A stretch of 64,000 bases of DNA from Escherichia coli (GTDB lineage Bacteria > Pseudomonadota > Gammaproteobacteria > Enterobacterales > Enterobacteriaceae), in NCBI RefSeq assembly GCF_017348835.2, contig NZ_CP071375.1, one strand, 5' to 3'. Each line of letters opens with the position of its first letter. The stretch's first letter is position 1. Below, one piece after another: positions 16,501-31,500 of the stretch. Position numbers: made by a program.

Positions 16501-19500
16501 GCTTCGGGCTGTTTGCGCATTGATGCTGAGATACGCTTCCAGTCTTCGCGATCCTTGTCGATAACCTCATTTGTCGCCCAGCGATGGATGGTACCGTCAA
16601 TGTTTCCTGCATCCACATCACCGGGCCAGAGGGCGCAGGCCAGTTCATTGTCGAGTGTTTTCCATGTCTGTTTGTATTCGCGGCGAATGGCAACAGTGAC
16701 AGCCCCGGTTTTTTCAGCAGCGTTTTCAGTGTTCTGTTGGTTGACTCTGGCGCGGGTGAGATCAACAACAGACGTGTATTTTCCGGTTTCCTTGCGTTCA
16801 CCTTCGCGACGTTTTTTCCAGATGCGCATCTCTGCCTGAATTTCAGGCCATTTAGCGCCAGGCTCACATTTATGCTTAACCCACCCGATGGCATGCAGTT
16901 TAAGTTCAGGATACATGGCGTTAACTTCTGGCATTTTCATCAACGCTTCAACGATATGTCCGCCGAATGTTGCCATGTCTTCCTGTAGTAATTCCTGTGC
17001 GCTAATCACCATATCAACGGTGATGTTTTCGCATGTGTCGAATTTAACCAGGACTGCGTTCTGTACTTCAGGGGACAGCTTGTCAAAATTGACGTTCATC
17101 GGATCGGATTCTGGTTCGACCGGTACAAAGGAAGCTGACTCCTCATCCCAGCGGTTTTCCTGCATATATTCGGTATCCCAGGAATCGAGGGCAGGGCGGG
17201 GTATGCCGGGTTTATCCTCGCAGACAATAAATTTATAAGCGCAGTCCTGAGCTGCCGGGAATTGCTCCAGAAATTGCCAGTGAAATTTTGCGCGTGCGCG
17301 ACGCTCATCACCGGCTTCAATGGCAGTGGCCACCGCAACAGCGCTATCTTCTTTTATGGCCTGTTCGTCAGGAATAGCAGCGCAAATAAAGATTTTACTC
17401 ATTGTGTTTTAACCTCATTACAGATTTAAGGGTGAACAAATCCCTGCCATTGCTGGCATATAAAAATGAAACCGGATATTAATTACGGTGCTGTTTTAAA
17501 GTCCTGCCGGTATTTCGTTATTATTAGTGTGAGTAGTTTTATCTACCGGATAACAGTTACCGGGAATTTTTTGTTCTGCTGCTGCAGCCATGCATTCTTT
17601 CATTGAACCGTATAAGCCAGTCACCAGCTCAAGAGATTCGCCGGAAACAAGATAAACTGTCAGAACGAGTGCAAATGTTGTATTCATTGTTTATATCCTT
17701 TTTGCAGCAGGTCCAGACGAGCCAGCATTGAAGGAATGCATACTTCATTTAACAGGTCCTGCTCGAGTTTTCTCTGCTTAATGGCGTCTTCAATAAATGT
17801 TTTGTCTCCAGTGATAACGCCAATTTCGAAACGAAGTTCAGACGTGCTGGCATTACATGATAACTTTTCCATTATCGCGTCCTCAACAATGAATTTTGTG
17901 ATGCGGTGCCTGGTGCCTCCAGGTGACGTTAACCAGTTAACAATTAACGCCGGATACAGAGCATTCTCGTTACTCAGCAAATGACCGCTTTACCGATTTA
18001 ACTGTTCCGCGTGCGCTGAGCCGCATTCACCGCATCACAAAATTCACTTTTAAAAAAGGGCGGCAGAGCAGTCACGGAGTAAAACTGATACCGCCAAATG
18101 TCACCAGAATATTGATAACAGAGGGCGTTGCAGCGGGGTTGTCACTTAAGCGTATGGTCAACCTGACAACCCGGTGTCCTCAACGGGGAAAGAATAACCC
18201 CGCCATACTTACCGCCGCGCCATTTCGCGGATTGCCACAACCGGAAGCGCACGGTCGAATTAAATTTAACGACGGCTCTAAGGGAGAAGGACTTCGCCGT
18301 GCACTTTCGTGTTATGCCCTGACTTTTCAGGGATATATCCTTTCAGTAAACTGTCAGTGCCGGATTCTTATCTGTGTCCGGCGCACGACCACACGTAGCA
18401 GCGTGTTGGTCTCCATTTTTAATTCAGCCCTTAATGGAGGATAAAATGCCAAACAAACCATGCCCTGCCTGTAACGCTCTTTCTGGCTTTTTAGAGAAGG
18501 GCGGTTATTACATTTTTAACTGTCCAGAACATGTTGAATTTCATATATCAAAACTTGACAGTATCATTACAAAGCCAAATCAGTATCAGTCTGATTTACT
18601 GAATAAAGAGTTAAACGCCGCCCGAGATTAAGGGCGTAGTGGCCCATTAAAAATATTGCAAAGACCAACTATTGTTGAACTGGATTAAACCAGTAATTCT
18701 CTATTGCTCTTATTGTTACCATCGGATGATTGCCGGGGGTTATTTTAAGTTCGGGAGGAAAAGGCTCTCCATCAGCAGCCATCATTGAGTATGTGAAATC
18801 CGCCGACGCAGTCCCTTTCATGATAATTCCGAATTTTTCAAGTAATGAGAGCAGTTCCGGTAATCCTGTGTCATCTGAATAACTTTCCTCATAGAAAGAA
18901 GCGATTGCCGCAGGAGATGACAGTTCTCGCTCTGCAATTTTTTTGTAGTTTTCCAGAGTTCTTTTTTTGAATACTTTTCCTCGACATGAAAACCCATCAC
19001 CGAGGCAATCCGCTTTGCAGTTTCTTCAGTATTCTGGTTGTTTGTTACCGAAACAGAGTACAATCCGGTAAACGCATCGCGCACATTACGAGCCATATTA
19101 TCAATGTATTTCTTCGTTGCAGATTCTAATTCAACTTCGTTCAGACGTTGGTGAAGTGCATGTGCTGCAATTTCCTGGATTTCTTTTAGTAAATCTTTAA
19201 ATTCCATCTTTAACTCCGTTAGTCGTTAGATTTTGCCGAACTGGAAAGCGCCTGTTTAAACTCACTGAAGCTGAGAGCTTCCTCGCCTTCGGCAAGGCCT
19301 TTGAACCGCCCCGGGTTTCCTGGAGAGTGTTTTATCTGTGAACTCAGGCTGCCAGATCATTATTTCCGATGGAAGCATAATAAGCTTTTTCTGCTTCTGC
19401 CGGAGGAATATGGCCCAGCCTTTCCAGCAATCGTCGATTGTTATACCAGTCCACCCACGTTAGTGTGGCCAGTTCCACTTCTGCACGGTTTTTCCAGCTC

Positions 19501-28500: not shown

Positions 28501-31500
28501 GTCAGCAACAGCGACATCATCCGGATAAACGCAGTGCCCGTGCGCAGCACGATGACTGGCTGAAGAAAGAGATACAGCGCGTATACGATGAAAATCACCA
28601 GGTATACGGTGTGCGTAAAGTCTGGCGTCAGTTGTTACGGGAAGGTATCAGAGTGGCCAGATGCACTGTGGCACGTCTCATGGCAGTTATGGGACTTGCC
28701 GGTGTTCTCCGGGGTAAAAAGGTCCGCACTACCGTCAGCCGGAAAGCCGTTGCCGCATGCGACCGCGTAAACCGTCAGTTCGTGGCAGAACGTCCAGACC
28801 AGTTGTGGGTGGCTGATTTTACCTGGGTAAGCACATGGCAGGGCTTCGTTTATGTGGCGTTCATCATTGATGTGTTCGCCGGATACATCGTGGGATGGCA
28901 GGTCTCATCATCCATGGAAACAACATTCGTGCTGGATGCACTGGAGCAGGCGTTGTGGGCCCGTCGGCCGTCCGGCACAATCCATCACAGTGATAAAGGT
29001 TCTCAGTATGTATCGCTGGCCTACACGCAGCGGCTTAAGGAAGCCGGATTACTGGCATCAACAGGGAGTACTGGCGACTCGTATGACAACGCGATGGCTG
29101 AGAGCATCAATGGTCTTTACAAAGCGGAGGTAATACACCGTAAGAGCTGGAAAAACCGGACAGAAGTGGAACTGGCCACACTCACGTGGGTGGACTGGTA
29201 TAACAATCGACGATTGCTGGAAAGGCTGGGCCATATTCCTCCGGCAGAAGCAGAAAAAGCTTATTATGCTTCCATCGGAAATAATGATCTGGCAGCCTGA
29301 GTTCACAGATAAAACACTCTCCAGGAAACCCGGGGCGGTTCACCACTGGGATTTTGGCGCAACTTCATGGTGCAGAGGTAAATAGCATCAAGCAAAATCT
29401 CTTTTTCCGTTGTTGTCCTTATGGGACGTCTGTCTTTCTGACCGATTTCATATTGGCGAGGTAATGGGAAGTTAAGTAGAATAGCTGCGGGTGCTTGAGG
29501 CTATCTGCCTCGGGCATGAACACCAACGGCAGATAGAGAAAAGCCCCAGTTAACATTACGCGTCCTGCAAGACGCTTAACATTAATCTGAGGCTCAATCT
29601 ATGAACGGCAAATCTAGGTTAGCCTCTTACGTGCCGAAAGGCAAGGAGATGTATGGGTCCACCACATATTGCAATTTTTATTCTCTTTTAAAATATATTC
29701 CACGGGCGTCATTAGTGCGAGCGCCTTGTGGGGTCTTTTGCTGTTATACAGCACCAGATATTCCGCCAGCTTCTGGTTAAATAGCGCCAGATCTTCAAAG
29801 AGTAAAATCTCATTAAATTCAATAAACTGCTCTCTTAACGTCCGGTTAAAACGTTCACAGATAGCGTTCATTTTTGGCGTGTAGGGATAGGTCCAGAGGT
29901 GTTTGATAGCGGCTTCCTGCAGCGTTTTGTCGAAGTTTCCCAGGAACTCTTTTCCGTTATCTGTGATTATCTGGCTGATACCGACCGGGAACAACCGGGC
30001 TGCGCGGCTGAAGAAGTGATTGACGATATCACTGTTGAGTGACGGCACAGCCAGCGCCAGCGCGTAATTGCTGCATTCGTCGATCATGGTGATGACATAG
30101 CGACGCAGTTCGCCCATTCTGAGCTCAATGGCGTCCATCCCAATGAGCTCACCTGTCTTTACCGGGCGGTAGTGCTTTGGCCTGCGGGGTTTGGCAGACC
30201 GCTTTTTGACAAGCAGTGCCTTCCCCCGCGATCCCAGACGCACAGGTATCATCCGCATTTTATCATGTGCGGCAGCGATCATTCTGCCGATGGTGGAAAC
30301 ACTCGGACAGGCCAGATAGCGCTGTTCGCACCAGGGCTTCAGGCGAACAAAAATCTGCTCTTTACCGAGGTTCGGCAGCTCTGTCCTGAGGCGTCGAATC
30401 TCTTTCAGCACATCGGGATGCCAGTGTTTTTTTCGTCGCACCAGAGGTGCCTTACTGTGCGGGATTAGCCCCTCAGGTCCTTCCTTGTTCAGTAACTGAC
30501 GCCACCAGTAAAGCGTGCGGCAGGACACGCCAAAGGCTTCAGAAGCTGCAGAAATACCGTGTTTATCCCAGAAGTGCAGAGCCTTCATTCTCATTGTTGC
30601 TATATCAGCCATCACTGAAAGCCTCAACGCATAATCGGCCGTTTGGTAGTACTTAGGATAGCCAACCATCAGATGCTGCATTTGCATAGTGCAATCTCCC
30701 CTTACTTATCCGGAGGCAATTGCAATATCTCTGTGAACTTACACAGGAGAAGCAGGCTATGAAGCAGCAAAAGGCGATGTTAATCGCCCTGATCGTCATC
30801 TGTTTAACCGTCATAGTGACGGCACTGGTAACGAGGAAAGACCTCTGCGAGGTACGAGTCCGAACCGGCCAGACGGAGGTCGCTGTCTTCACAGCTTACG
30901 AACCTGAGGAGTAAGAGACCTGGCGGGGGAGAAATCCCTCGCCACCTCTGATGAATCAGGCATCCTCAACGCACCCGCACTTAACCCGCTTCGGCGGGTT
31001 TTGTTTTTTCCTGGCATTCTGGTTTACAATTCGCACGCCAGCCTGAACAACTGGCACCTGCTGCGCCAGCAGAGACAACCGATGGCGCACGATACCAAAT
31101 TATACAATTCTGATGATTCTGCCGTCTTTGCCAGCAGGCGCGGACGGTGTTTTCACGCATTCAAATCTGACTGGTACCAGCATCCCCCATGCACTGAAGA
31201 ACAGGCCGAATGGCTCATTCAGTGTTACCGCAGGCGCGGATGCGAGGTTAAAAAAGCCCTTAGCCTCGACTACCGTCACTGGATAATCTCCGTCAGGCTC
31301 CCTTACTCCGAACGGCCACCGCGTCCGTCCCGCACATTCCAGCAACGGATCTGGAGGTAATGTGCGGGTATTACTTCGACCTGTTCTGGTACCGGAACTC
31401 GGTCTGGTTATCGTTAAGCCAGGCCGTGAATCCATGCGGGTATTTCATGGCGGCAGGGTGCTGGTGGAGTCTGAACCGAAAAGCATGCGTAATCTGCCGT

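Follow-up and report, generated by a model that had tools for sequence, protein, structure and literature searches.

The early region of the lambdoid prophage contained in the window, the whole 64,000-nucleotide stretch of Escherichia coli DNA analysed here, very probably received two separate IS629 insertions, and the segment lying between them has kept its ancestral orientation. The prophage is of the Qin/DicB type, and is integrated beside yccA. The two elements are inverted relative to each other, and bracket the immunity and replication functions.

The two IS629 elements

Copy A spans residues 19302..20611 on the minus strand (IRL at 20611, IRR at 19302), copy B residues 28033..29342 on the plus strand (IRL at 28033, IRR at 29342). 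A repeat search recovered them as one inverted repeat pair, featuring arms of 1310 nt and 7421 nt in between, and no third IS629 copy was found when the window was searched for more. Two full-length, oppositely oriented elements spaced by about 7.4 kb had been reported in the preliminary description, and this proved correct, both being 1310 bp long and endowed with intact ORFs. The coordinates originally given hold for copy A, but copy B starts at 28033 and not at 28034, one base off. Exact comparison identified 1306 of the 1310 residues as identical in the two copies; the four substitutions, where at least two had been anticipated, are found at element positions 380 (G in A, A in B), 1127-1128 (TG/GA) and 1151 (A/C). 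The resulting identity, 99.7% over 1.3 kb, is far past chance.

Both elements are bounded by 5'-TG...CA-3', and their terminal inverted repeats are imperfect, as IRL (TGAACCGCCCCGGAAATCCTGGAGA) and IRR (TGAACCGCCCCGGGTTTCCTGGAGA) match at 22/25 positions. In either copy orfA encodes 108 aa (20231-20557 in A, 28087-28413 in B), while orfB encodes 296 aa in A (19344-20234) and 295 aa in B (28413-29300). The two frames overlap at ATGA/ATAA, 3' of an A6 run, and the ALIL frameshift pseudoknot catalogued in Rfam was detected in both copies, at 20160-20276 in A and 28368-28484 in B, with scores of 121.5 and 120.3 bits, respectively. A programmed frameshift has been annotated by PGAP in the copies of PE164, a pig isolate discussed below. 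The products score 312.7 and 311.8 bits against NCBIfam transpos_IS3 (cutoff, 160 bits), as IS3-type DDE transposases, and the DDE motifs, spotted by eye, are present in both translations (D in WVADFTW, D in HHSDKGSQY, E in AMAESINGLYK). The IS629 annotated in phage BP-4795, which served as reference in place of the ISfinder type sequence, shares 99.5% identity with copy B across 1310 bp. Against the IS1203-type copy of the O157:H7 strain OK1, 55 differences were counted, corresponding to 95.8% identity. On the sequence features considered, both elements can be classed as IS629-type members of this family, distinct from the IS1203 isoform, as PGAP names it in the O157:H7 records examined. Both copies may still be competent for transposition. 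IS629 is known to duplicate 3-4 bp of target DNA, and 62% of the copies hosted by O157 strains reside in prophages or prophage-like elements (PMC3271280).

Insertion sites and bracketed genes

Copy A splits ydfB. In the leftward early operon this gene comes second, the order being ydfA, ydfB, a 129-aa ORF, DicF, dicB, ydfD, and the exonuclease, xis-like and int genes. The 3' and 5' parts of ydfB (minus strand) lie at 19219..19301 and 20612-20660, and an intact 42-aa ORF is restored once the IS and one target site duplication (TSD) are removed. The insertion occurred ~380 bp downstream of a leftward early promoter-like sequence (TTGACA-18-TAGATT) found within a palindromic operator-like site (OL; 20999..21042, minus strand). 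A matching palindromic operator-like site (OR; 22038..22078) separates the repressor from the cro-like gene. The target of copy B was a gene remnant, which is non-coding and separates a low-GC hydrolase gene from hok/sok. The insertion thus parts the replication genes and the hydrolase from hok/sok, the nin region and the Q antiterminator.

The bracketed segment (20612..28032, 7421 bp) begins with the 5' end of ydfB, followed on the minus strand by ydfA (20662-20817), the PL/OL region, relE (21094-21381), relB (21381-21572) and a DicA-like repressor gene (21600-22001). Plus strand genes are the cro-like gene (22110-22382), ydaT (22366-22791), O-like (23532-24641) and DnaC-like (24648-25334) replication genes, a DUF1627 gene (25416-26186) and a DUF977 gene (26202-26615). 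An ECs1072-family gene (22998-23453) and an alpha/beta hydrolase gene (26967-27740), the latter located in a region of 34-36% GC, are on the minus strand. All the functions earlier said to be enclosed by the IS copies are present, RelE/RelB being the toxin-antitoxin pair, along with the repressor, cro, replication and low-GC hydrolase genes. Nothing contradicting the structural reading of the region was found.

Independence of the insertions

Direct reading of the flanks confirmed that different 3-bp repeats accompany the two elements, CTT for copy A (19299..19301, outer; 20612..20614, inner) and CCA for copy B (28030..28032, inner; 29343..29345, outer). The same prophage is found without IS in UTAK-14. 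There CTT and CCA each occur once, at the empty sites, and the segment between these is colinear. An IS-free sequence reconstructed in silico aligns as a single piece, with 99.6-99.9% identity, to most of 60 genomes among the matches listed; it finds one unbroken match in dozens of EHEC-type genomes, and at least 80% of it is covered in 417 genomes. The colinearity of the IS-free relatives, the single CTT and CCA, and the one-piece match of the reconstruction show that the two insertions were independent, upholding what the unlike flanking repeats had suggested at the outset. Each element would have arrived by its own copy-out/paste-in event, generating its own 3-bp duplication.

A discrete gene module between two intact IS copies is also what a composite transposon would look like, and the immunity/replication module could accordingly have been brought into the prophage as an IS629-7.4 kb-IS629 unit. 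IRR forms the outer end of both copies, and hardly differs from IRL over the terminal 13 bp. However, the outer flanks, CTT and CCA, make no common TSD, whereas each IS has a perfect one of its own, and in the majority of the 60 genomes among the matches listed the 7.4-kb segment occupies the same place, colinear and devoid of IS. IS3-family elements move via a circular IS intermediate, which hardly favors compound transposition. Given the TSDs and the empty sites, the composite transposon was rejected, its probability being next to nil.

Distribution among E. coli genomes

Among 5426 complete E. coli genomes both insertions occur together only in the pig isolate PE164, and the double-insertion state is rare. 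The possibility that the window is PE164 itself was discarded. The 16-kb chromosomal flank is identical in the two, and mosaic patches of difference occur in the late genes; since more than 100 positions differ there, the PE164 assembly stands for another strain or, at the least, was made separately. PE164 thus provides independent assembly support for the two insertions. Across 20.5 kb, substitutions between the window and PE164 fall in copy A only, which suggests either gene conversion between the IS copies or a repeat-polishing artefact. As the IS copies appear to exchange alleles, differences between A and B are unreliable for dating the insertions.

One may ask whether one or both copies are an assembly artefact, a multi-copy repeat having been misplaced by the assembler. 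IS629 is indeed multi-copy in such genomes, as at least 40 places of the PE164 genome match it, and the confinement of substitutions to copy A could reflect the polishing of repeats. Yet, exact 3-bp duplications are found at both insertions, the sequence being single-copy at the empty sites, and both insertions are also in the PE164 assembly. Misassembly is very improbable, and two genuine insertions remain the favored reading.

No complete E. coli genome was found carrying just one of the two insertions. F2_81, FWSEC0007 and 2014C-3655, which gave 85-91% matches, were considered as intermediates and dismissed, as IS629 copies located elsewhere in or near the prophage had been joined into the matches. 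Insertions at other sites were also observed. UTAK-6 hosts an independent IS629 ~250 bp from the site of copy B, the IS1203-type copy of O157:H7 OK1 lies inside ydaT, and in a second UTAK-14 prophage an IS copy occupies a different site, within the dicB operon of that prophage.

Inversion of the bracketed segment

RecA recombination between inverted repeats inverts the intervening DNA, a sound mechanism, and recombination between the 1.3-kb inverted copies is predicted to flip the 7.4-kb immunity/replication module at low frequency. The pair could thereby be the substrate of a small inversion confusing assemblies or typing. A past net inversion was ruled out, in view of the colinear IS-free relatives and of the matching TSD that flanks each IS; the matching TSDs mark the present orientation as the original one. 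The inverted isomer was sought with a synthetic junction query of 3310 nt, made of the outer-left flank, the IS and the reverse complement of the inner-right flank, and was found in 0/5426 complete genomes at a coverage of at least 80%. The best matches reached a coverage of 70% only, corresponding to flank plus IS.

A more ambitious view is that the inverted pair acts as a flip-flop through recombination, so that on inversion each of the two early promoters, leftward and rightward, would drive the other flanking operon. If so, the repressor-controlled leftward promoter would be joined to the Q/late-gene side, the side with DicF, dicB, exo and int would be connected to the rightward one, and subpopulations would differ in prophage inducibility or cell-division toxicity. 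Repeats of 1.3 kb, 99.7% identical and just 7.4 kb apart, speak in its favor, and the allele pattern suggests that the IS copies recombine in the lineage, at least by gene conversion. Still, the assembled state is un-inverted, with a matching TSD on each copy, and the inverted isomer is missing from all complete genomes, though the pair is present in one other genome only. Neither a dedicated recombinase nor selection is evident, and low-level inversion would be a by-product of any inverted repeat. The annotated bracketed segment contains no invertase gene, the repeats are whole IS elements rather than short inverted repeats, and a single orientation is seen in the complete-genome assemblies. 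A switch of this type is very unlikely, and heritable heterogeneity in prophage inducibility or DicB/DicF expression is just as improbable an outcome; we similarly doubt strongly that RecA flips the segment at a biologically meaningful rate. Two insertions flanking a segment in its original orientation account for the region.

Possible effects on phage transcription

Given their orientation, early transcription would enter both copies at the transposase end. Copy A may dampen leftward early read-through into DicF, dicB, exo and int, copy B rightward early read-through into Q and the late genes. Because they interrupt both early operons, the insertions may aid the domestication of the prophage. 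No intrinsic-terminator-like site with the orientation of the phage early transcripts was found within IS629, and an IS629 insertion in stx2 of O157 abolished neither downstream transcription nor phage production (PMC7430833); polarity may therefore be slight. Functional inferences from the insertions are weak.

Relation to known systems

The feature is of a known kind, ordinary IS629 insertions in a prophage, and current understanding is unchanged; importance beyond annotation is little. That strains differ in the IS629 insertions of their EHEC-type prophages is well documented, and the two sites could accordingly be used to mark the lineage of the PE164-like clone. The elements share with the IS629 of EHEC prophages (IS3 group; isoforms IS1203 and IS3411) the length of 1310 bp, the TG...CA ends, the orfA/orfB -1 frameshift, the ALIL pseudoknot, the 3-bp TSD and the location in lambdoid prophages. 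What sets them apart is the use of these two sites, found only in PE164 among the 5426 complete genomes.

Large chromosomal rearrangements due to prophage-prophage recombination are reported in O157 (e.g. PMC8743559). Inversions mediated by IS or prophages in O157:H7 act on a substrate of this type as well, mobile elements forming long inverted repeats within one replicon. Here, in contrast, an inversion is only predicted and would be confined to 7.4 kb of a single prophage, the assembled sequence being un-inverted. Two inverted IS copies around a block of genes are likewise found in composite transposons such as Tn10 and Tn5. In the prophage, by contrast, the outer ends have no TSD in common, each IS being flanked by its own, and the block is native to the site.

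Structure and intactness of the IS629 pair

A repeat search of positions 17000-31500 returned one long inverted pair, formed by copy A (19302-20611, minus strand) and copy B (28033-29342, plus strand), with arms of 1310 nt each and a spacer of 7421 nt. BLAST with the element as query detected no IS629 copy in the window beyond these two. The preliminary description had placed two full-length IS629 elements in inverted orientation about 7.4 kb apart; the alignment bears this out, and all coordinates hold except the start of copy B, which is 28033 and not 28034. With copy A reading leftward and copy B rightward, the terminal inverted repeat at the transposase end (IRL) of both points toward the enclosed segment. 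Compared base by base, the copies are identical at 1306 of 1310 positions, four substitutions being counted where at least two had been noticed. Mismatches (copy A/copy B) are found at element positions 380 (G/A), 1127-1128 (TG/GA) and 1151 (A/C). The substitution at 380 turns the TGA stop of orfA into TAA and replaces Met by Ile where orfB begins; of the other three, two are synonymous and one replaces Ala by Thr close to the C-terminus.

Both copies look intact at the sequence level. Their ends read TG...CA, and the terminal inverted repeats match at 22 of 25 positions. OrfA spans 108 aa in both, orfB 296 or 295 aa, and the two frames overlap after an A6 run. Against NCBIfam transpos_IS3 the orfB products score about 312 bits (cutoff 160), and the ALIL frameshift pseudoknot of Rfam is found in both copies (121.5 and 120.3 bits). 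Over its full length copy B is 99.5% identical to the annotated IS629 of phage BP-4795; most Stx-phage copies are 95-98% identical to copy B, and a copy named IS1203 in O157:H7 OK1 differs from it at 55 positions. IS629 is the most abundant insertion sequence of O157-type genomes, the majority of its copies reside in prophages, and it generates duplications of 3-4 bp (PMC3271280, PMC7430833).

Independent insertion into an ancestral order

CTT stands on either side of copy A (19299-19301 and 20612-20614) and CCA on either side of copy B (28030-28032 and 29343-29345), so that the differing 3-bp repeats first noticed can be read directly at both copies. In strain UTAK-14 the same prophage lacks both elements; its sites read ...GGCCTTCGAAG... 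and ...ATCACCACTGGG..., with a single CTT and a single CCA, and its 7.4-kb middle segment is colinear with that of the window. Removing each IS629 along with one target-site duplication, as well as a third, IS481-family element, from 18302-31400 gave an IS-free sequence of 9372 nt. Of the 60 complete genomes listed, most align with it in a single unbroken piece (99.6-99.9%), O103:H2 12009, O45:H2, O121 and many O157:H7 strains among them, and at least 80% of it is covered in 417 of 5426 complete E. coli genomes. Alignment in one piece fixes the ancestral state. Had the two elements moved as a composite transposon, one shared outer duplication would be expected, but the outer ends differ (CTT versus CCA). 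Inversion by recombination within the IS copies would have parted each from one copy of its duplication, which is not seen. The sequence evidence is that of two independent insertions, as had been proposed, with no net inversion.

Distribution among E. coli genomes

When the occupied 14.5-kb region was searched against the 5426 complete E. coli genomes, only PE164 (pig, Nanjing) matched it as a single 100% piece; its annotation has two IS3-family transposases at the matching places. The other high-coverage matches turned out to carry the element at different places. In F2_81 IS629 sits between esterase and holin, and FWSEC0007 and 2014C-3655 similarly carry it elsewhere. UTAK-6 has IS629 about 250 bp from the site of copy B, O157:H7 OK1 an IS1203-type copy in ydaT, and a second UTAK-14 prophage IS629 in its own dicB operon. 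The insertion pair is, judging from these genomes, confined to one clone. Searches with the IS-free query revealed IS600, ISKpn26, ISEc8, IS1203 or an IS481-family element in the same stretch of other lineages, which marks the early region as a frequent landing place for insertion sequences.

Comparison with PE164

The 16 kb of chromosome left of the prophage are 100% identical to PE164, and within 14000-34494 the two sequences differ by indels in the IS481-family transposase gene and by only three substitutions. These substitutions all fall within copy A (element positions 380, 1067 and 1151; window 20232, 19545 and 19461); the chance that three random substitutions would all hit that 1310-bp stretch is about 2.6e-4. 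At 380 and 1151, copy A of PE164 shows the allele of copy B. Alleles at 1067, 1127-1128 and 1151 segregate among IS629 copies of other strains, and G at 380 is found, among the copies compared, only in copy A of the window. The pattern suggests either gene conversion among IS copies or faulty consensus polishing of a repeat present many times.

That the window is PE164 itself is ruled out by dense differences at 36321-36480, in a SASA/NanS-type esterase gene, and at 59374-62062, in the host-specificity (tail-fibre) gene J and adjacent tail genes. Such patches, next to an identical chromosomal flank, are typical of prophage-prophage recombination, suggesting a mosaic produced by recent exchange with other resident prophages. 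In PE164 the gene for the large terminase is annotated as frameshifted, and in the window its ORF is intact; a 1-nt difference at 42783 lies inside it, and an assembly error in one of the two sequences is probable.

Prophage context

The prophage adjoins yccA, its integrase lying at 13624-14643. Two related operator-like palindromes of 39-41 nt (21004-21042 and 22038-22078, the latter between the DicA-like repressor and the cro-like gene), with half-sites of about 16 nt, ACAATTAAAAACTGTT...AACAGTTTTTAATTGT, flank the repressor-relBE unit, and resemble operators OL and OR. The left palindrome contains the best sigma-70-like promoter match of the control region, TTGACA-18-TAGATT (minus strand, 21028-20999, leftward). 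The RelE/RelB-type toxin-antitoxin pair (21094-21572) lies directly downstream of the repressor gene; being co-oriented with it, in a unit closed by a terminator-like hairpin (21075-21060), it seems part of the immunity transcript.

The leftward transcript would run through ydfA, ydfB, a 129-aa ORF, DicF (18058-18109; Rfam, 77 bits), dicB, ydfD, exonuclease, a xis-like gene and int. Copy A interrupts ydfB after codon 16, and a 42-aa ORF is regained on its in-silico removal. Copy B sits between the hydrolase gene (34-36% GC) and hok/sok, upstream of nin-type genes and Q. At these sites both elements, in sense orientation, separate repressor-controlled promoters from distal early genes, and may exert polarity on downstream genes. 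No intrinsic-terminator-like site is predicted inside IS629 in the direction of early transcription; in an O157 stx2::IS629 phage, downstream genes are still transcribed and plaques are formed (PMC7430833).

Beside copy B lies the IS481-family element (29650-30744, 1095 bp), bordered by direct repeats of 6 bp, AGGAGA (29644-29649 and 30745-30750). Its transposase ORF (29614-30687, minus strand, 357 aa) extends 36 nt beyond the element end. The insertion point is exactly the hokD Shine-Dalgarno ribosome-binding site, and parts sok/leader (Rfam sok, 29489-29655) from the hokD ORF (30759-30914). The element is present in UTAK-14, F2_81 and PE164, absent in FWSEC0007, UTAK-6 and 2014C-3655. Downstream of Q, where Stx phages carry stx, reside three tRNAs (35490-35739; Met-CAT, Arg-TCG and Arg-TCT by ARAGORN, the first annotated as Ile in relatives) and a match to the STnc100 sRNA (35816-36006, 138 bits), followed by the esterase gene; no stx gene is annotated in the matching PE164 stretch.

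Inversion and comparison with known systems

Inversion through the IS copies alters no short junction, and can be recognized only by linkage that spans an entire IS. A synthetic left junction of the inverted isomer, consisting of the IS with 1000 nt of outer-left flank before it and 1000 nt of reverse-complemented inner-right flank behind it, was covered to at least 80% in none of the complete E. coli genomes, the best matches (70%) being one flank plus IS. This shows that no isolate among those sequenced is fixed in the inverted state; with the pair present in just one further genome, it says little on the rate of inversion. Flipping of the control module is plausible, as yet unobserved and without evident function. 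The features that define a composite transposon or a dedicated invertible switch were not found on examination, and all those examined that define an IS3-family IS629 element are present. The pair is an ordinary feature, correctly described at the outset, and inversion of the control module is its sole forward-looking element.
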